DNA of 14,407 nucleotides, taken from positions 1-14,407 of the IMG/VR virus record IMGVR_UViG_2778261641_000006; one strand, 5' to 3'. Position numbers and translations under genes: made by a program. Position 1 is the first letter of the stretch. Each line of letters starts with the position of its first letter. The notes under the pieces are model-generated. The model was not told the DNA's origin. It ran no database searches and saw only the letters and a list, made by a program, of their open reading frames with translations. This DNA comes from a virus (lineage: Duplodnaviria > Heunggongvirae > Uroviricota > Caudoviricetes). Shown one piece after another: positions 1 to 5,778 of this stretch.

Positions 1-101
1 ACAGTCGCCTAAACATAATCTGTCGCGAGTGCCGGAAGAGCGAAGTTATGCAGCGCATATTGTCGTTTTATCAGGGGAATTTTCAGGAGGTGGTGCTGTG
101 A
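1..101 (+). CDS. Possible 3' end of an upstream gene running off the left edge (partial)
   Basis: Frame 3 is open from the window start to TGA at 99-101 and contains a CxxC motif (ICRECRK). The stop abuts GTG at 102. Frame 2 is also open from position 2 to a stop at 182-184, so the assignment is ambiguous. Confidence 0.2.
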   Translation, partial: SRLNIICRECRKSEVMQRILSFYQGNFQEVVL

Positions 102-158: not shown

Positions 159-515
159 ATGGAAATAAAACCAGAAGATGAGTTAAGTAATATTGTTTTA
201 TTTCCGGTAAAAGAGGATGACCCACGTAATCAGGTTAATTTTCTTTATGAGCCATCGGAAAGACCATACTGCCATCACGCTTCTGTCCGGGTTGACGAAA
301 AAGAGCGTCAGGTCCGCTGTAAAAACTGCGGTGCAGTTGTGGAGCCGTTTGACTGGATGCTCTCAGTGGCGAAAAGAGAAACCAGACTGGCAGATGATGT
401 AAGGCTATTGCGCCAGGAGGAACAGGAAAGGCGGAAAAATATAGAAAAGTTAATTCAGATTGAGCGTAACGCGAAAGCGCGGATACGCAGAGCGACAAAA
501 TCCAGAACTGAATAA
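159..515 (+). CDS. Hypothetical phage protein with a Cys/His cluster (possible zinc ribbon) and a basic, coiled-coil-like C-terminus
   Basis: ORF-track frame 102..515. ATG at 159 is preceded by AAGGAGAGGAG 6-9 nt upstream; GTG at 102 is an alternative start. Motif CHH-x16-CxxC, followed by a K/R/E-rich tail. I recognise no homolog. Confidence 0.5.
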   Translation: MEIKPEDELSNIVLFPVKEDDPRNQVNFLYEPSERPYCHHASVRVDEKERQVRCKNCGAVVEPFDWMLSVAKRETRLADDVRLLRQEEQERRKNIEKLIQIERNAKARIRRATKSRTE

Positions 516-585
516 TTAAATTTAGTAGTGTTAAAAATTTAATCCTTAACCGGAGGGATTTCTGCACCCTCAGAACATCAGGAGG

Positions 586-601
586 CCGCCCGAAAGGGCG
601 G
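586..601 (+). promoter_or_regulatory. Stable hairpin (CCGCCC-GAAA-GGGCGG) between the SD-like AGGAGG (580-585) and the start codon of the next gene
   Basis: Perfect 6-bp GC stem with a GNRA tetraloop, seen directly. No U-tract follows, so it is not a classical terminator. If folded, the SD-to-ATG(609) distance drops from 23 nt to about 7 nt. Confidence 0.35.
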
Positions 602-608
602 TAATGAA

Positions 609-791
609 ATGCGAAAGTTCAAAATAATTATTGAAACGGGAATAGCTGGTGGAGATTTTGAGGATGTATTCGAAGTGGACGATGACGCAACACCTGATGA
701 AATTCATGATGAAGCAAAAGAAATTTTCTTTAACTACTGCAATTACTCATATCACGCAATAAAAGACGAAGAGGAAGAACAAAATGGCTGA
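609..791 (+). CDS. Small, highly acidic hypothetical protein (60 aa)
   Basis: ORF track. About 18 D/E versus 5 K/R in 60 residues. The stop overlaps the start of the next gene by 8 nt. Confidence 0.5.
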   Translation: MRKFKIIIETGIAGGDFEDVFEVDDDATPDEIHDEAKEIFFNYCNYSYHAIKDEEEEQNG

Positions 792-960
792 TTTTGGTTC
801 AACTAAATACAACGTCAGTTTTGAAGAATGGCATGAACTGTTAATGGACTATGCAGAGTTACGTGGTGGAAGTGCTGCTGATGCTGAAGCCTGGCGTGAT
901 GACTACGAAGCAGGAAAAACACCTGTCGAAGCATATTGTGATGAGTGGGGCGATGAATGA
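784..960 (+). CDS. Small acidic hypothetical protein (58 aa; below the ORF-track length cutoff)
   Basis: Translated by hand: ATG 784 to TGA 958-960, MADFGSTKYNVSFEEWHELLMDYAELRGGSAADAEAWRDDYEAGKTPVEAYCDEWGDE. GAGGAAG lies 7-8 nt upstream. The start overlaps the previous stop, and the stop overlaps the next ATG (ATGA at 957-960). Confidence 0.4.
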   Translation: MADFGSTKYNVSFEEWHELLMDYAELRGGSAADAEAWRDDYEAGKTPVEAYCDEWGDE

Positions 961-1472
961 GCGAGATTAATTATCAGGAAGGGCATGAAACGGTAGGGCA
1001 GGCAAAACCAGTTGCATGGCGATATCGCTATGTGAAAAAAAGCGTTACGGACTTTCAGGAGAAGATGTGGGTTGGTGACTGGAAATATGTACCGACAAAA
1101 GAGGATTGCAACGACAGGCCGAGCTATGAGATTCAGGCCTTATTCACTGCCCCGCCAGTCCCGGTGACATCAGAAGGACTGGTTAAAGCCGTGCGCTTTT
1201 ATGAACAGGTAAAGCGTGAAAATCCGCCAGCCGAAACAGGATCATGGAAAGATGCTGTTGATTGGGTACTCAAAGAGGCCTGCTGTGCTGCCATTCTGGG
1301 TAAAGCTGACAATCCACTAGCATCCAGTAATCAGGTTAGCGAATTAACAATGTGGGTTAAACGACTGGTCAGTCAACTGAAAAAAGCTCAGCCGGACTGC
1401 AAATTACCGGAGAAGGCGATGGATTACCTGAAACGAAATGGACTGATAAGCGTGGAGGATGTTTTAAGATGA
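957..1472 (+). CDS. Hypothetical phage protein (171 aa)
   Basis: ORF track; coupled to the flanking genes through ATGA overlaps at both ends. No motif I recognise. Confidence 0.55.
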   Translation: MSEINYQEGHETVGQAKPVAWRYRYVKKSVTDFQEKMWVGDWKYVPTKEDCNDRPSYEIQALFTAPPVPVTSEGLVKAVRFYEQVKRENPPAETGSWKDAVDWVLKEACCAAILGKADNPLASSNQVSELTMWVKRLVSQLKKAQPDCKLPEKAMDYLKRNGLISVEDVLR

Positions 1473-1552
1473 CCTGGTCTGAAGCATTCACAACGGTAGG
1501 AATCGCACTGGCGGTGGCGCTGGTGGTGTATTCGATTTGCCGCTGGGGATAA
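1469..1552 (+). CDS. Putative 27-aa hydrophobic peptide (MTWSEAFTTVGIALAVALVVYSICRWG)
   Basis: Hand-translated. ATG 1469 overlaps the TGA of the previous gene (ATGA). Single predicted transmembrane segment. Very short, so it could be spurious. Confidence 0.25.
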   Translation: MTWSEAFTTVGIALAVALVVYSICRWG

Positions 1553-2455: not shown

Positions 2456-2654
2456 TGTATAGCTTGGACGATAAATTATTAGTGAAAACGCCGTAAACCC
2501 TCACCCAATGTGGACTAAGTCTATCAAACATGACTGTGATGATTAGTCCGTAGTTGTTGCCTATGAAATCTGGATTGAGTCAGGGTTTAATCCAATAATT
2601 ATTCTATCGTTCCTTTACAAGTCCGGTATATTACTTTCAGTTTGTTTTAGCATA

Positions 2655-2679
2655 CCCGCTTCGGCGGGTTTTGTTTTTT
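2655..2679 (+). terminator. Rho-independent terminator (CCCGC-TTCG-GCGGG then TTTTGTTTTTT)
   Basis: 5-bp GC stem, UUCG tetraloop and a long T-tract, read directly. Confidence 0.6.
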
Positions 2680-2751
2680 CCTGGCATTCTGGTTTACAAT
2701 TCGCACGCCAGCCTGAACAACTGGCACCTGCTGCGCCAGCAGAGACAACCG

Positions 2752-3030
2752 ATGGCGCACGATACCAAATTACACAATTCTGATGATTCTGCCGTCTTTG
2801 CCAGCAGGCACGGGCGGCGTTCCCGCACTTTCAAATCTGACTGGTTCCAGCATGACCCATGTACTGAAGAACAGGCCGAATGGCTAATTCATAACTATCG
2901 CAGACGCGGATACGAGATTAAGAAAGCCCTCAGCCTCGATTATCGTCACTGGATAATCTATGTCAGGCTCCCTTATTCCGAACGCCCACCGCGCCCATCC
3001 CGCACATACCAGCAACGGATCTGGAGGTAA
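2752..3030 (+). CDS. Small basic hypothetical protein (92 aa), in the position Rem occupies in Qin
   Basis: The ORF-track entry begins at a TTG (2671) inside the terminator T-tract; the first ATG is at 2752. Stop TAA at 3028-3030 sits just before the GTG start of the next gene. Weak RBS. Confidence 0.4.
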   Translation: MAHDTKLHNSDDSAVFASRHGRRSRTFKSDWFQHDPCTEEQAEWLIHNYRRRGYEIKKALSLDYRHWIIYVRLPYSERPPRPSRTYQQRIWR

Positions 3031-3031
3031 C

Positions 3032-4090
3032 GTGCGGATATTACTTCGACCTGTTCTGGTACCGGAACTCGGGCTGGTGGTCCTTAGGCCGGGCCGTGAA
3101 TCCATGCAAGTATTTCATAACCCTCGAGTGCTGGTGGAGCCTGAACCGAAAAGCATGCGCGGTCTGCCGTCCGGAGTCGTCCCTGCCGTTCGCCAGCCGC
3201 TGGCGGAGGATAAATCATTACTGCCATTTTTCAGCGATGAGCGGGTGATTCGTGCTGCTGGCGGCGCTGGGGCACTGTCTGACTGGCTGTTGCGTCATGT
3301 CAAATCCTGCCAGTGGCCTCATGGTGACTATCATCACAGTGAAATCGTCATACATCGTTACGGTACCGGCGCGATGGTGTTGTGCTGGCACTGCGACAAC
3401 CAGTTGCGTGACCAGACATCCGAATCACTCGGGCAACTTGCTCATCAAAACCTGTCAGCATGGATGATTGACGTCATACGCCATGCAATGAATGGCACGC
3501 AGGAGCGGGAATTGTCGCTGGCTGAATTATCCTGGTGGGCGGTCTGCAATCAGGTGGCGGACGCGCTTCCGGAGGCAGTATTACGTCGTTCTCTGGGGTT
3601 ACGTGCGGAAAAAATCCGCTCCTTGTACCGCGAAAGCGACATCGTACCGGGAGAGCAGACCGCCACCAGCATACTGAAGCAGCGCACAAAAAATCTTGCG
3701 CCGTTGCCTCATGCCCACCAGCAACAGAACCCACCACAGGAAAAGACGGTGGTATGCATCACCGTTGATCCGGAGTCTCCGGCTCAGTATCTCCAGCGCC
3801 AGAAACCACAACGGGAAGAGATGCCTGTATACACGCGCTGGGTAAAAACGCAGAAATGCATGACGTGCGGTAATCAGGCAGATGATCCGCATCACATCAT
3901 TGGTCATGGACTGGGAGGGATGGGAACAAAGGCTGATGATTTGTTTGTTATTCCGCTGTGCCGTAAATGTCATAACGAACTGCACGCCGGGGTAAAAGAT
4001 TTTGAAGAAAAACACGGCAGCCAGCTGTTGTTGCTGATTCGTTTTTTAATGCACGCGAGAAATTCGGGTGTCCTGAAGTGGAAAGCATGA
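3032..4090 (+). CDS. DUF968/YdfU-like prophage protein with a C-terminal HNH-like Cys/His motif
   Basis: GTG at 3032 is in frame with the track ORF 2960..4090 and has GGAGGT 4 nt upstream. The resulting 352-aa product matches the size I recall for YdfU. C-terminal CMTCGN...HH...CRKCHNELH. Lies directly upstream of rusA, as in DLP12/Qin-type prophages. Confidence 0.65.
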   Translation: MRILLRPVLVPELGLVVLRPGRESMQVFHNPRVLVEPEPKSMRGLPSGVVPAVRQPLAEDKSLLPFFSDERVIRAAGGAGALSDWLLRHVKSCQWPHGDYHHSEIVIHRYGTGAMVLCWHCDNQLRDQTSESLGQLAHQNLSAWMIDVIRHAMNGTQERELSLAELSWWAVCNQVADALPEAVLRRSLGLRAEKIRSLYRESDIVPGEQTATSILKQRTKNLAPLPHAHQQQNPPQEKTVVCITVDPESPAQYLQRQKPQREEMPVYTRWVKTQKCMTCGNQADDPHHIIGHGLGGMGTKADDLFVIPLCRKCHNELHAGVKDFEEKHGSQLLLLIRFLMHARNSGVLKWKA

Positions 4091-4456: not shown

Positions 4457-5142
4457 ATAACCAGTATTTACAGTTTGTGCGTGAACAGCTCATTATCGCC
4501 ACCGCCGATTTGAGTGGAGCAACAAAAGGTCAGCTTGAAGCCTGGCAGGAGAATGCCATGTTTGATACCGGGCGTTACAGGCGTAAAAAAATCCGGTACC
4601 GCGATGAAGTGACCGGAAAAATGATCACGCTGGATAATCCACCAATCCCGGGGAAACAATCGCTGGCAAAGAAGACGTCAATTCCTCTGGTAAGTCAGGT
4701 TGAGTTTTCGACATCATCATGGCGACGGGCGGTTCTGTCTCTTGAAGAACACCATAAAGCCTGGTTGCTGTGGTGTTACAGCGGCAGCATTTGCTGGGAA
4801 CACCAGATTGCGATAACACAGTGGGCGTGGAATGAATTTAACGCGCAATCTGGTACCAGAAAAATTGCGGAGAAAACACGGGAGCGCCTGAAAAAATTAA
4901 TCTGGCTGGCGGCACAGGATGTGAAGAGTGAGCTAGCTGGGCGTGAAACTTATGAATATCAGGAACTGGCATTACTGGCGGGAGTGACAACTAAAAACTG
5001 GTCCAAAACATTTACTGGTCACTGGGTTGCAATGAAACACATTTTCCACCGGCTGGATAGTGAGGCTTTATTGTTTGTGATGAGAACACGTTCAGAACAA
5101 AAGGCGGCATTTTCAAAGCAAAATGTTGCAAAAGTAGATTGA
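4453..5142 (+). CDS. Putative late-gene antiterminator Q (Qin QuuQ/Q82-like family)
   Basis: ATG 4453 overlaps the rusA stop (ATGA) and has GGAG 6 nt upstream; the track start at 4447 is a GTG. The function call rests on synteny (after rusA, before promoter/terminator and the lysis cassette) and size, not on recognised motifs. Confidence 0.55.
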   Translation: MNNQYLQFVREQLIIATADLSGATKGQLEAWQENAMFDTGRYRRKKIRYRDEVTGKMITLDNPPIPGKQSLAKKTSIPLVSQVEFSTSSWRRAVLSLEEHHKAWLLWCYSGSICWEHQIAITQWAWNEFNAQSGTRKIAEKTRERLKKLIWLAAQDVKSELAGRETYEYQELALLAGVTTKNWSKTFTGHWVAMKHIFHRLDSEALLFVMRTRSEQKAAFSKQNVAKVD

Positions 5143-5154
5143 AAGGCATATATT
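5126..5154 (+). promoter_or_regulatory. Candidate late promoter PR' (TTGCAA -17 nt- TATATT) overlapping the 3' end of the Q-like gene
   Basis: Hexamers and spacing read directly. A terminator follows about 50 nt downstream, the arrangement expected for a Q-modified PR'/tR' unit. Confidence 0.35.
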
Positions 5155-5207
5155 TCATGCAAATCTGATATTTTGCCGATTTTGTACGTGATGGCAAAAG
5201 CAAACAA

Positions 5208-5231
5208 AACCCGCCCACAAGCGGGTTTTTT
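5208..5231 (+). terminator. Rho-independent terminator (AACCCGC-CCACAA-GCGGGTT then T-tract); candidate tR'
   Basis: 7-bp stem with a T-tract, read directly. Confidence 0.6.
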
Positions 5232-5298
5232 GTGCCACTTATCTCGGATAGACATGGTGAATGCGCTAGTGGAGGAGATAAGGGTGATTTTTGAATGC

Positions 5299-5327
5299 TT
5301 GCAACATTGATTTCGTAACGTTATTAT
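5299..5327 (+). promoter_or_regulatory. Candidate sigma70 promoter for the tRNA cluster (TTGCAA -17 nt- TATTAT)
   Basis: Read directly. The predicted start at about 5334-5336 lies immediately 5' of the first tRNA (5337). Confidence 0.45.
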
Positions 5328-5336
5328 CCTGCGCCC

Positions 5337-5412
5337 GGCCCTTTAGCTCAGTGGTGAGAGCGAGCGACTCATAATCGCCAGGTCGCTGGTTCAAATCCAG
5401 CAAGGGCCACCA
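5337..5412 (+). tRNA. tRNA with anticodon CAT (Ile2/lysidine-type or Met; resembles E. coli ileX and prophage ileZ)
   Basis: Cloverleaf folded by hand: acceptor GGCCCTT/AAGGGCC, D-arm GCTC..GAGC, anticodon loop CTCATAA, T-loop TTCAAAT, 3' ACCA. Confidence 0.8.
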
Positions 5413-5413
5413 G

Positions 5414-5490
5414 CCGCCACTAGCTCATCAGGAAAGAGCGTCAACCCTTTAAGTTGAGTGTGCGAGGTTCGAGTCCCCGGTGGCGGTCCA
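5414..5490 (+). tRNA. Non-canonical tRNA-like gene, UUU-type (Lys-like) anticodon in a loop reading CCTTTAA (C at position 33)
   Basis: Acceptor CCGCCAC/GTGGCGG, discriminator T, CCA encoded; 9-nt D-loop; anticodon stem TCAAC/GTTGA; T-loop TTCGAGT with an A-C mismatch in the T-stem. Could be functional, a pseudo-tRNA, or mis-folded by hand. Confidence 0.45.
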
Positions 5491-5492
5491 GT

Positions 5493-5568
<76 letters not shown>

Positions 5569-5571
5569 TAT

Positions 5572-5646
<75 letters not shown>

Positions 5647-5652
5647 GTTAGA

Positions 5653-5698
5653 GTCTTTCAGTCTGCGATGATGGGAAATCCCGGAGTGACTGAAAGAC
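5653..5698. repeat. Perfect 11-bp inverted repeat (GTCTTTCAGTC / GACTGAAAGAC) with an inner GGG-AAAT-CCC mini-hairpin, just 3' of tRNA-Gly
   Basis: Read directly; 24-nt spacer. Possible RNA processing or structural element. Confidence 0.5.
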
Positions 5699-5705
5699 GT
5701 TTAAG

Positions 5706-5778
5706 TTATGAATGATCGCCTTTTTTTGCAAAATTGCTGTGCAGAAATACTAACCTTCGAGCAGGCGATCATTCATAA
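5706..5778. repeat. Perfect 15-bp inverted repeat (TTATGAATGATCGCC / GGCGATCATTCATAA) around a 43-nt spacer that holds a promoter-like TTGCAA -16 nt- TACTAA
   Basis: Read directly. The left arm is followed by T7. The embedded -35/-10-like hexamers are at 5726-5731 and 5748-5753. Confidence 0.5.

Follow-up and report, generated by a model that had tools for sequence, protein, structure and literature searches.

The nin region of phage lambda, comprising ren and ninA to ninI between P and Q, is a run of small, non-essential, co-directional ORFs that have stop/start overlaps and are mosaic between phages. The block of five ORFs described here, named p1 to p5, is at positions 159–1552 of a 14,407 bp stretch of viral DNA (the window) and shares each of these features, likewise lying between replication genes and the late antiterminator gene Q. 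In Klebsiella, Yersinia and Serratia prophages, homologues of p1 are found in the corresponding place, just upstream of Q, between YbcO/NinH/RusA and Q. Unlike the nin region, however, the block includes no product with detectable homology to any Nin protein. In a tblastn comparison with lambda positions 20000–46000, no block protein gave a match better than E = 0.002 and none matched in the nin genes, and the Pfam families of the region (NinB–NinI and Ren) also found no match among the block proteins. A further difference is that Stx phages also carry cassettes of the block, in their leftward early arm.

The exo-xis region of lambda and Stx phages and the 'ea' region of P22 (Ea22/Ead, Orf63, Orf61, Orf60a, Ea8.5) are also similar, as they carry early, small, dispensable genes with functions that are mostly unknown. 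In Stx phages and in Enterobacter prophages, genes resembling Ead/Ea22 are interspersed with cassettes of the block. The p1 gene, which was found solely in phages and prophages of temperate type, is in some cases fused to an Ead_Ea22 domain. This would be consistent with the block encoding modulators of the lysis-lysogeny decision or the physiology of the host, comparable to the exo-xis proteins of lambda (Ea22, Orf63, Orf61, Orf60a, Ea8.5, Orf73), that would tune prophage induction or lysogenisation instead of countering defences. The exo-xis genes are small, early and non-essential and shift lysogenisation and induction (PMC7093339, PMC3824215, PMC6213356). However, the block proteins are without homology to the lambda exo-xis proteins (tblastn against lambda), p4 falls below the Pfam model for Ead_Ea22 (PF13935; no match at E ≤ 0.1), and p3 and the p2 fold are both present in strictly virulent phages. 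As such phages make no lysogeny decision, a lysogeny-specific role is unlikely for p2 and p3 but may apply to p1, and a modulator role for the block is considered rather unlikely.

The T7 proteins Ocr and Gp5.9, and ArdA, are small early proteins with a very high negative charge density, and anti-CRISPR (Acr) proteins are small and acidic. The p2 and p3 products resemble them in these respects, and the initial annotation had proposed that all five ORFs form one co-translated anti-defence or host-takeover module. The comparisons below indicate that the block is probably a recombinational patchwork of independent, non-essential accessory cassettes in a delayed-early rightward operon equivalent to nin, and not a five-gene module. 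The cassettes would be drawn from a pool kept by lambdoid phages in the nin, exo-xis and 'ea' (Ead/Ea22-associated) regions. As it stands, the block is an ordinary part of the accessory genome of lambdoid phages.

Gene content and prophage setting

The window is a Qin/Rac-type lambdoid E. coli prophage. Positions 1–2100 share 97.6% identity with a prophage of E. coli S51, in which the gene order is Cro-YdaT-(O-like)-DUF977-p1-p2-p3-p4-hokD-...-DUF968-RusA-Q-tRNAs-lysis-terminase. From the annotation of that locus, the 3′-end of the DUF977 (YdaW-like) gene, the last of the replication block, is at 1–101 (+ strand), upstream of p1. The block is in the rightward early operon, with replication genes upstream and hok/sok, DUF968, RusA and Q beyond.

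All five co-directional ORFs listed in the initial annotation were recovered on the + strand: p1 (159–515, 118 aa), which has the Shine-Dalgarno (SD) sequence aaggagaggagcATG, p2 (609–791, 60 aa), p3 (784–960, 58 aa), p4 (957–1472, 171 aa) and p5 (1469–1552), a hydrophobic mini-ORF of 27 aa with a good GGAGG SD but of doubtful gene status. The overlaps claimed for p2/p3, p3/p4 and p4/p5 are also as described, at 8, 4 (ATGA) and 4 (ATGA) nt, respectively. The p1 and p2 genes are 93 nt apart, and p1 is not coupled to p2. The block is in a region of accessory cargo, as first noted, and downstream it does adjoin a hok locus, a hok/sok type I toxin-antitoxin locus (1594–1919, + strand) identified using Pfam HOK_GEF (82.6 bits) and Rfam sok (112 bits, 1594–1769), with a mok/hok ORF at 1707–1919 that is hokD in RefSeq. 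No consensus promoter or terminator was found inside 1–2000. The closely packed genes share one direction and are probably transcribed together at an early stage, and their position suggests that transcription reads through from the early promoter. In the early operons of phages, overlaps of the ATGA type are commonplace and so do not, alone, define a functional unit; the overlaps found here would reflect the usual packing of such operons.

Compared with diverged copies, p1, p2, p3 and both halves of p4 have dN/dS values of approximately 0.02–0.22 and, judged by these values, p1–p4 are real genes under purifying selection. Hence, the earlier count of five genes holds for p1–p4, which also belong to PHROG families, but the fifth ORF is doubtful as it has no coding signature. 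That the small ORFs are chance ORFs or decaying remnants rather than functional genes is extremely improbable. The missing coding signature of p5, and its frame, which is broken in one phage, would fit with this, as would pseudogenes of p2, p3 and p4 in the Qin lineage and of p4 in ETEC H10407. However, besides the low dN/dS values, the families reach distant phages at 35–60% identity, and between the E. coli and Enterobacter forms of p3 the synonymous sites are saturated (28 changes) but only 15 changes are nonsynonymous. For p1–p4, the dN/dS values already refute the chance-ORF reading.

In line with the initial annotation, no function is known for any of the five products. The p1–p4 products fall in uncharacterised families, and the block proteins found no matches in NCBIfam. 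Identical proteins are already public under the names 'hypothetical', 'DUF7167' or 'TFIIB-type zinc ribbon-containing' protein.

Assortment and decay across genomes

By their co-occurrence across genomes, the genes are not a conserved five-gene unit, and the proposed five-gene module is not supported. Among 5426 complete E. coli genomes, 2704 carry some part of the block, but only 379 of these carriers have all of it. The p2–p3 pair was found in 1907 E. coli genomes, with at least 80% of the pair in one place in 1749 of them. In a survey of the neighbours of p2 in 119 IMG/VR contigs, for which the denominators vary by gene, p3 follows p2 in 114 of 116 contigs (98%) and p1 precedes it in 66 of 101, while the N- and C-terminal parts of p4 are present in 63 and 54 of 78 contigs, respectively, and p5 in 21 of 78. 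Per-gene frequencies beside p2 hence range from 27% to 98%.

By these counts p2 and p3 are the sole stable pair, and only within Escherichia-type lambdoid prophages. In other lineages, p1, relatives of p2, and p3 each occur alone. The block is made up of at least 4 independently assorting cassettes, namely p1, the leader hairpin with p2 and p3, the p4 N-domain, and the p4 C-domain with or without p5. The same cassettes are found in the Stx phage ArgO145, where they are located in the leftward early arm, among Ead/Ea22-like genes and far from the replication genes. Caution is needed with loci of this type, as genes of a phage early region are not shown to be a functional module by co-orientation and stop/start overlap, and co-occurrence across lineages needs to be checked.

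The location of the block directly after the replication genes in the window could suggest that its products are accessory factors of phage DNA replication or recombination, e.g. small acidic binders of helicase, polymerase, gyrase, SSB or recombinase. Distant genes of the p2 family, DUF7167, adjoin gyrase A/B, DNA polymerase A/SNF2 helicase, or GamL-RecT-Gp157, with none of the other four block genes near, and the p3 homologue of a Morganella phage is two genes upstream of an RdgC-like gene. The label 'DUF5419' carried by this homologue was not reproduced with current Pfam. However, a replication role is quite improbable given that the neighbourhoods are heterogeneous with no recurrent partner gene, that ArgO145 has the genes away from the replication region, that the p3 homologue in Cba120 is downstream of capsid genes, and that the genes are dispensable, having been lost in many otherwise similar prophages.

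In the Qin lineage, which accounts for ~30% of copies, p2 and p3 carry shared nonsense mutations (K37* and W37*, respectively) and p4 is frameshifted. The genes probably serve the phage and not the host. In live prophages they have remained intact and show purifying selection, p2 and p3 are interrupted in the domesticated Qin remnant, and relatives of p2 and p3 are also present in strictly virulent phages.

The acidic pair p2 and p3

The p2 product belongs to DUF7167 (PF23768; 51 bits against a cut-off of 24.4 bits, over profile positions 1–60 of 60) and matches phrog_1997 (PHROG HMM, E = 3.7e-30), and 85 relatives were found in a search of 1.8 billion proteins. The p3 product matches phrog_519 (E = 4.5e-23) over positions 76–137 of the 143-column profile and includes the conserved motif GGSAADAEAWRDDYEAGKTP..A..DEWG. 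The strong acidity reported for both was borne out, with a net charge of −13 over 60 aa (pI 4.09) for p2 and −12 over 58 aa (pI 4.05) for p3, and the acidic residues are partly conserved across the DUF7167 alignment. Values of dN/dS are 0.05–0.11 among intact copies of p2, and 0–0.2 for p3. The phrog_519 columns covered by p3 raised the idea that it is the C-terminal half of a p2–p3 fusion, which was rejected because p2 has no phrog_519 match.

A copy of p3 that is 79% identical is found in Enterobacter prophages, following an Ead_Ea22 gene and without p1 or p2. Relatives sharing 55–60% identity are present in ~170 genomes of virulent Ackermannviridae, again with p3 alone, and proteins with the p2 fold occur in the virulent phages phAPEC8 and Lactococcus phage 949.

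Structure prediction had been suggested for all of the products and was carried out for p1 and p2 using AF2 (pLDDT 75.5 and 87, respectively), with no significant PDB neighbour for either. The p2 model is a compact beta-beta-alpha domain, consisting of a beta-hairpin and a helix, with an acidic tail. Foldseek searches with this model returned a best E value of 0.9 against PDB, and only uncharacterised phage proteins against BFVD.

The p2 gene has a leader (581–602, + strand) in which GGAGG at 581–585, 23 nt upstream of the AUG at 609, is followed by a 7 bp hairpin with a GAAA tetraloop (585–602), which the centroid fold also shows. Whatever the upstream neighbour, the hairpin accompanies p2 and, if it folds, would place the SD ∼6 nt from the AUG. 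In the T4 gene 38 type, a split ribosome-binding site is bridged by a hairpin, and the p2 leader is similar in that GGAGG and AUG are parted by a stable hairpin of 18 nt. It differs in that the p2 hairpin is a predicted one and support from covariation is weak, with 98 canonical forms, 4 with the compensated pair G588A + C599T and ∼12 with one broken pair among 119 viral contigs.

Together, p2 and p3 constitute a stable, translationally coupled acidic pair with its own leader hairpin. The tight linkage (98%), the shared hairpin and the extreme acidity of both products could mean that they work as a true unit directed at a specific target, in which case describing the block purely as independent cassettes would understate their link. 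Most likely, p2 and p3 would each serve as a small acidic decoy or inhibitor that binds, and blocks or redirects, a conserved protein of enterobacteria soon after infection begins. The roles proposed here for p1, p2 and p3 draw on composition and predicted architecture and not on homology to characterised proteins.

The acidity of p2 and p3 was the basis for the suggested anti-defence function, in which one or both would inhibit host immunity (type I restriction-modification, CRISPR-Cas or RecBCD-linked), as a DNA mimic or otherwise, when expressed early, so that incoming or replicating phage DNA is protected. At −0.21 per residue, their charge density exceeds that of all other real small proteins of the prophage and lambda, and is within the range of Ocr and Gp5.9. 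The early position, a selection pattern that points to benefit for the phage, with decay in the cryptic Qin lineage, and the presence of p3 relatives in virulent Ackermannviridae infecting the same host family and of the p2 fold in phAPEC8 and phage 949 are all consistent with this function, and one distant DUF7167 gene is four genes downstream of a GamL-like gene. The only link found in the literature is that the phrog_519 family has been flagged in Kuttervirus genomes using PaCRISPR/AcRanker, with a machine-learning Acr score (PaCRISPR) of 0.54 and of 0.48 in one genome (PMC9409062), but the former is a borderline prediction, at the threshold.

On the other hand, searches of Pfam, PHROGs, NCBIfam and PDB matched the block proteins to no family of anti-restriction or Acr proteins, and p2 and p3 have no sequence match to the Ocr, ArdA or Gp5.9 families. 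The p2 model, a domain of 60 aa, has no fold match among these and shows no apparent resemblance to known DNA mimics; it is predicted to be compact rather than to form an elongated phosphate-mimicking surface. Unlike Acr loci, the block includes neither a homologue of a validated Acr nor an adjacent aca gene; no aca-type HTH gene is found within 159–1552, and the neighbours are p1, p4 and hok. Acidity is in any case not diagnostic alone, as the lambda anti-restriction protein Ral is basic (+3) and NinF, of unknown function, is nearly as acidic as p2 and p3. PADLOC defence models found no matches among the block proteins, and searches of PDB sequences with p1–p4 as single sequences and with p1 and p2 profiles gave nothing meaningful. 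Literature searches on DUF7167, the RefSeq accessions, DUF5419 and lygF/irsA, and more broadly on anti-defence in lambdoid phages, found nothing relevant. Neither of the findings that the initial annotation named as refuting was made, as no homology to proteins with known unrelated functions was detected and live prophages have conserved the acidic ORFs. The sequence data neither support nor refute an anti-defence role for the block genes, and a module of this kind is considered unlikely.

A related proposal is that p2 and p3 represent two new families of acidic inhibitors, acting alone or paired against a conserved enterobacterial DNA-targeting defence or repair enzyme (restriction or RecBCD-linked). 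This would explain why temperate lambdoid phages and virulent Ackermannviridae have both retained p3, at 55–60% identity, as well as the recurrence of the p2 fold in virulent phages of distant hosts, and the decay of p2 and p3 after prophage domestication, and it is likewise rated as having a low probability. About one in three complete E. coli genomes carries the pair, which would matter if a defined host target exists. The Ackermannviridae are phages considered for therapy. Given the prevalence of the pair in E. coli and of the p3 family in ~170 virulent Ackermannviridae, demonstration that they act in anti-defence or in host takeover would provide an annotation for thousands of genes in a single step.

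p1, p4 and the 27-aa ORF

The p1 product matches phrog_1621 (PHROG HMM, E = 2.5e-56). Its N-terminus is disordered and includes a conserved TETExELSNVVxFP motif. The zinc-ribbon-like motif was originally given as CHH-x16-CxxC, but the spacing is x13 (C38-H39-H40-x13-C54-x2-C57), and the ligands C38, H40, C54 and C57 are invariant in an alignment of 33 homologues from across the Enterobacterales. The score against Pfam Zn_Ribbon_TF (PF08271, TFIIB-type) is 26 bits, below the 29-bit cut-off. In the AF2 model this part forms a 3-strand ribbon for which the best PDB fold match is the TFIIB N-domain (E = 0.56), and Foldseek detected no neighbour in PDB at E < 0.5. A basic helix of 55 residues, LRxEExxRRxNIEKLIQIERNAKARIRR, is almost invariant, and dN/dS for p1 is 0.02–0.2. 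On composition and predicted architecture, p1 would be a zinc ribbon joined to a long basic coiled-coil helix, and its most likely role would be that of a regulator or adaptor that binds nucleic acid or a polymerase. The idea that the arginine-rich helix binds the GAAA hairpin of the p2 leader, as in lambda N/boxB, was dropped as unsupported because p1 is missing from a third of the contigs in which the hairpin and p2 are found, and other genera have p1 without the hairpin.

The p4 product matches phrog_660 (E = 6e-74) and is a fusion of two mobile protein modules. The N-module (∼aa 1–115) is that of phrog_660/26213, and the C-module (∼aa 120–171) is common to several otherwise different proteins (phrog_924, 8171 and 30109). 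Phage 689R5 encodes each module in an ORF of its own, and Ea22, EaA and a hypothetical gene lie between the two, while in ArgO145 the C-module ends a different gene and an Ea22-like gene occupies the position of p4. Breakpoints are found inside p4 in E. coli genomes, and omega is ∼0.21–0.22 for each module. Comparison with PDB sequences gave weak matches only, to designed TIM barrels and a helicase-loader fragment.

Comparison of p5 with the copy in Stx2 phage EH2086 revealed 12 differences, distributed 4/4/4 over the codon positions with no third-position bias, and the break in the frame noted above is in phage 689R5. The ORF is not annotated in RefSeq, and the exact sequence is absent from a collection of 15 billion proteins. 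The p5 ORF is probably not a gene, though it may yet prove to encode a small membrane protein. Where present, p5 accompanies the p4 C-module and/or hok/sok, and in EH2086 it is located after a p1-like ORF and before hok. In favour of a real gene are its strong SD, hydrophobic substitutions that are conservative, and the occurrence of an ATGA overlap in each of three contexts.

Genomic setting of the block

The block at 159-1552 comprises five ORFs, p1 to p5, on the + strand at 159-515, 609-791, 784-960, 957-1472 and 1469-1552, as the initial annotation had placed them. The reported overlaps of 8, 4 and 4 nt (p2/p3, p3/p4 and p4/p5) are present, p2, p3 and p4 are coupled, and hok/sok lies directly 3' of the block as described (Pfam HOK_GEF; Rfam sok 1594-1769). 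A consensus scan of positions 1-2000 found no promoter or terminator.

The first 2.1 kb of the window shares 97.6% identity with a prophage of E. coli strain S51. The left part of that prophage runs from int to exonuclease, dicB, ydfC/B/A-like genes and the repressor, and is followed by Cro, YdaT, an O-like protein, DUF977, p1, p2 (DUF7167), p3, p4 and hokD. Genes for a 130-aa lipoprotein, DUF968, RusA and Q, four tRNAs and the lysis genes come next, with terminase, portal, protease and capsid at the late end. This order identifies the block as part of the rightward early operon of a Qin/Rac-type lambdoid prophage, in the position occupied by the nin region of lambda. In the RefSeq annotation of the S51 locus p1 to p4 are called and p5 is not. 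Among known regions, the nin region of lambda and the exo-xis/'ea' accessory regions come closest; they share position, style and mosaicism with the block, but no homology was found between the block products and the proteins of those regions. The exact proteins are already public as hypothetical proteins, and the block is an uncharacterised set of genes in a familiar type of region rather than a novel type of system.

Two features lie further downstream. The predicted 130-aa lipoprotein after hok (2063-2455; phrog_16082) has a signal peptide and an LGGC lipobox, and its N-terminus weakly matches the Cor superinfection-exclusion family (phrog_1119, E=0.007), making it a possible candidate exclusion lipoprotein. 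The tRNA cluster at 5337-5646, between Q upstream and the lysis genes downstream, includes a tRNA with a CAT anticodon (Met according to ARAGORN, Ile in RefSeq), Lys-TTT, Thr-TGT and Gly-TCC.

An AT-rich palindrome, TTAAATTT...AAATTTAA (516-542), immediately follows the p1 stop codon. It is kept in copies with p1 adjoining p2 and also in the Qin copy, which has another ORF in place of p1, and is missing from Stx phage ArgO145. At 581-611, a GGAGG is followed by a stable 7-bp hairpin with a GAAA tetraloop (585-602) and then by the p2 AUG, 23 nt from the GGAGG. If folded, the hairpin would reduce the SD-AUG spacing to ~6 nt, forming a split ribosome binding site. It always accompanies p2, whatever the upstream gene. 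Among 119 viral contigs, 98 carry the canonical hairpin, 4 the compensatory pair G588A+C599T (also found in S51), ~12 one broken pair, and a few wobble-compatible variants; the covariation that these sequences suggest is weak.

The predicted products

The initial annotation recognised none of the five products, and none is of known function. Each of p1 to p4 matches a PHROG family of unknown function (phrog_1621, phrog_1997, phrog_519 and phrog_660, respectively), and p2 is a bona fide DUF7167 member. Searches of NCBIfam, PADLOC and PDB sequences with single sequences or profiles gave no match for p1 to p4, and no homology to characterised proteins was found.

Homologues of p1 with 45-73% identity occur in Klebsiella, Salmonella, Serratia, Erwinia, Yersinia and Morganella. 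The zinc motif noted earlier in p1 is present, with the spacing C38-H39-H40-x13-C54-x2-C57 rather than x16, and C38, H40, C54 and C57 are invariant among the homologues. The C-terminal helix, LRxEExxRRxNIEKLIQIERNAKARIRR, is almost invariant. The AlphaFold model (pLDDT 75.5) consists of a disordered N-terminus, a three-strand zinc ribbon and one 55-residue helix; it has no significant fold match in the PDB, the best being a TFIIB ribbon (E 0.56). The zinc ribbon, the invariant basic coiled coil and a conserved N-terminal linear motif suggest that p1 may be a nucleic-acid- or polymerase-binding adaptor.

The net charges of p2 (60 aa) and p3 (58 aa) are -13 and -12, as first estimated, with a pI of about 4.1. 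These are the highest acidities per residue among the real small proteins of the window prophage and lambda, NinF of lambda being next (-0.18). A full HMMER scan of 1.8 billion representatives recovered 85 relatives of p2, ~45 of them distant 50-60-aa proteins with 35-50% identity. The family consensus, MxKxxVxxETGxxG......EVxDDATxEEIEExAxExxFN, is acidic along its whole length. The p2 model (pLDDT 87), a beta-hairpin and a helix, has no PDB neighbour below E=0.9, and its fold matches in BFVD are all uncharacterised, coming from phAPEC8, Lactococcus phage 949 and Streptomyces phage Paedore. For p3, 202 phage records gave a tblastn match, ~170 of them from virulent Ackermannviridae (55-60% identity), namely Vi1-like phages of Salmonella, Klebsiella, Escherichia and Serratia; Cba120 orf183 is one example (3474-3668 of locus L032). 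The conserved core is GGSAADA[ED]AWR[ED]DY[ED]AGKTP..A..DEWG.

The product of p4 (957-1472) is a chimera of two mobile protein modules. In phage 689R5 the N-module (aa 1-115, 87% identity) is a separate 119-aa ORF, and the C-module (aa 120-171, 66% identity) ends another ORF that follows after ~0.9 kb; the two are separated by Ea22, a hypothetical gene and EaA. The C-module terminates yet another gene in ArgO145, and this segment of ~50 aa (...PDCKLPEKAMDYLKRNGLISVEDVLR) recurs at the end of several proteins that otherwise have no relation to one another (phrog_924, 8171, 30109). Its role may be that of an interaction domain common to these proteins, or of a linker for recombination.

Against diverged copies, dN/dS was 0.02-0.2 for p1, 0.05-0.11 for p2 (intact copies), 0-0.2 for p3 and about 0.21-0.22 for each half of p4, and p1 to p4 are under purifying selection. 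Between E. coli and Enterobacter, p3 differs by 28 synonymous and 15 nonsynonymous changes. The status of p5 as a gene is doubtful. Its 12 differences from the copy in Stx2a phage Stx2_EH2086 [LC645440] are distributed 4/4/4 by codon position, the frame is broken by a 1-nt deletion in 689R5, and the exact peptide had no match in a collection of 15 billion proteins. A good SD, and an ATGA overlap that recurs in three contexts, speak in favour of p5. In EH2086 (2534-3450 of locus L025), a 156-aa ORF is followed by an ATGA-coupled p5 homologue, with 8 of 27 residues changed, mostly through conservative hydrophobic substitutions, and then by hok/sok, indicating that p5 also travels with hok/sok. 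The C-terminal part of the 156-aa ORF belongs to the p1 family (E=3.7e-18), so diverged paralogues exist among p1-like proteins.

Distribution of the cassettes

The proposal that the five genes form one unit is contradicted by their co-occurrence across genomes, which reveals shuffled cassettes. Some part of 159-1552 is present in 2704 of 5426 complete E. coli genomes, and only 379 have 80% or more of it together at a single site. Recurrent breakpoints in the E. coli copies fall on gene or module borders. The p2+p3 pair was found in 1907 E. coli genomes and is complete in 1749. Among 119 IMG/VR contigs retrieved via the p2 leader, p3 follows p2 in 114/116 and p1 precedes it in 66/101; near p2 are the p4 N-module (63/78), the p4 C-module (54/78), hok (47/78) and p5 (21/78). 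The arrangement in the window is thus a minority outcome, one among those that cassette shuffling has generated.

Outside Escherichia the p2-p3 pair breaks up. In Enterobacter prophages p3 (79% identity) is directly 3' of an Ead_Ea22 gene, either before xis-int or after O/P, with neither p1 nor p2, and in Ackermannviridae and one Morganella phage it occurs without other block genes. ArgO145 carries p1, an extra gene, p2 and p3 in its leftward arm among Ead/Ea22-like genes. Homologues of p1 (50-73% identity) in Klebsiella, Yersinia and Serratia prophages (loci L026-L031) consistently occupy the distal end of nin; they follow YbcO/NinH/RusA and precede the Q antiterminator, either immediately or with one small gene in between. 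Distant DUF7167 genes adjoin GamL-RecT, gyrase, DUF551 and terminase, or DNA polymerase A and SNF2, and none has any of the other four block genes nearby. Some gene neighbourhoods suggest an accessory role in replication or recombination, but no partner gene recurs.

Possible roles of the block genes

The Qin cryptic-prophage lineage accounts for ~30% of the IMG/VR viral-contig copies. Its copies (for example 5001-5770 of locus L016, from the Qin prophage of E. coli WS0115A) have in common K37* in p2 and W37* with a GTG start, from ATG, in p3. The p4 gene is frameshifted, an unrelated 118-aa ORF replaces p1, and dicB, relBE and hokD are kept. RefSeq names the 118-aa product a 'class I SAM-dependent methyltransferase', for which it is implausibly short.

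The block genes are intact and constrained in live prophages and decayed after domestication, with relatives in virulent phages, which together suggests that they serve the infection cycle of the phage itself rather than lysogenic conversion. A role in the lysis-lysogeny decision, as for exo-xis genes (PMC7093339, PMC3824215), is possible for p1 but unlikely for p2 and p3, because both occur in virulent phages. An anti-defence or DNA-mimic role is compatible with charge, timing and distribution, and the only published hint is a prediction from a machine-learning screen in Kuttervirus, which gave phrog_519 a borderline anti-CRISPR score (PaCRISPR 0.54, at threshold; PMC9409062). Sequence and fold searches give this role no support and acidity is not diagnostic, as Ral of lambda is basic and NinF nearly as acidic; we regard the role as improbable. 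As acidic proteins, p2 and p3 may bind, or act as decoys for, a conserved protein of enterobacteria. The greatest gain would come if the p2-p3 pair or the p3 family proved to have a defined host target.

DNA spanning p2-p3...hok, with 93-96% identity to E. coli prophage, is also present in PP818812.1 (11316-13646), Actinobacillus phage vB_Apl-pPE4, attributed to Actinobacillus pleuropneumoniae. This similarity suggests that the DNA stems from an E. coli prophage or that the host was wrongly assigned.
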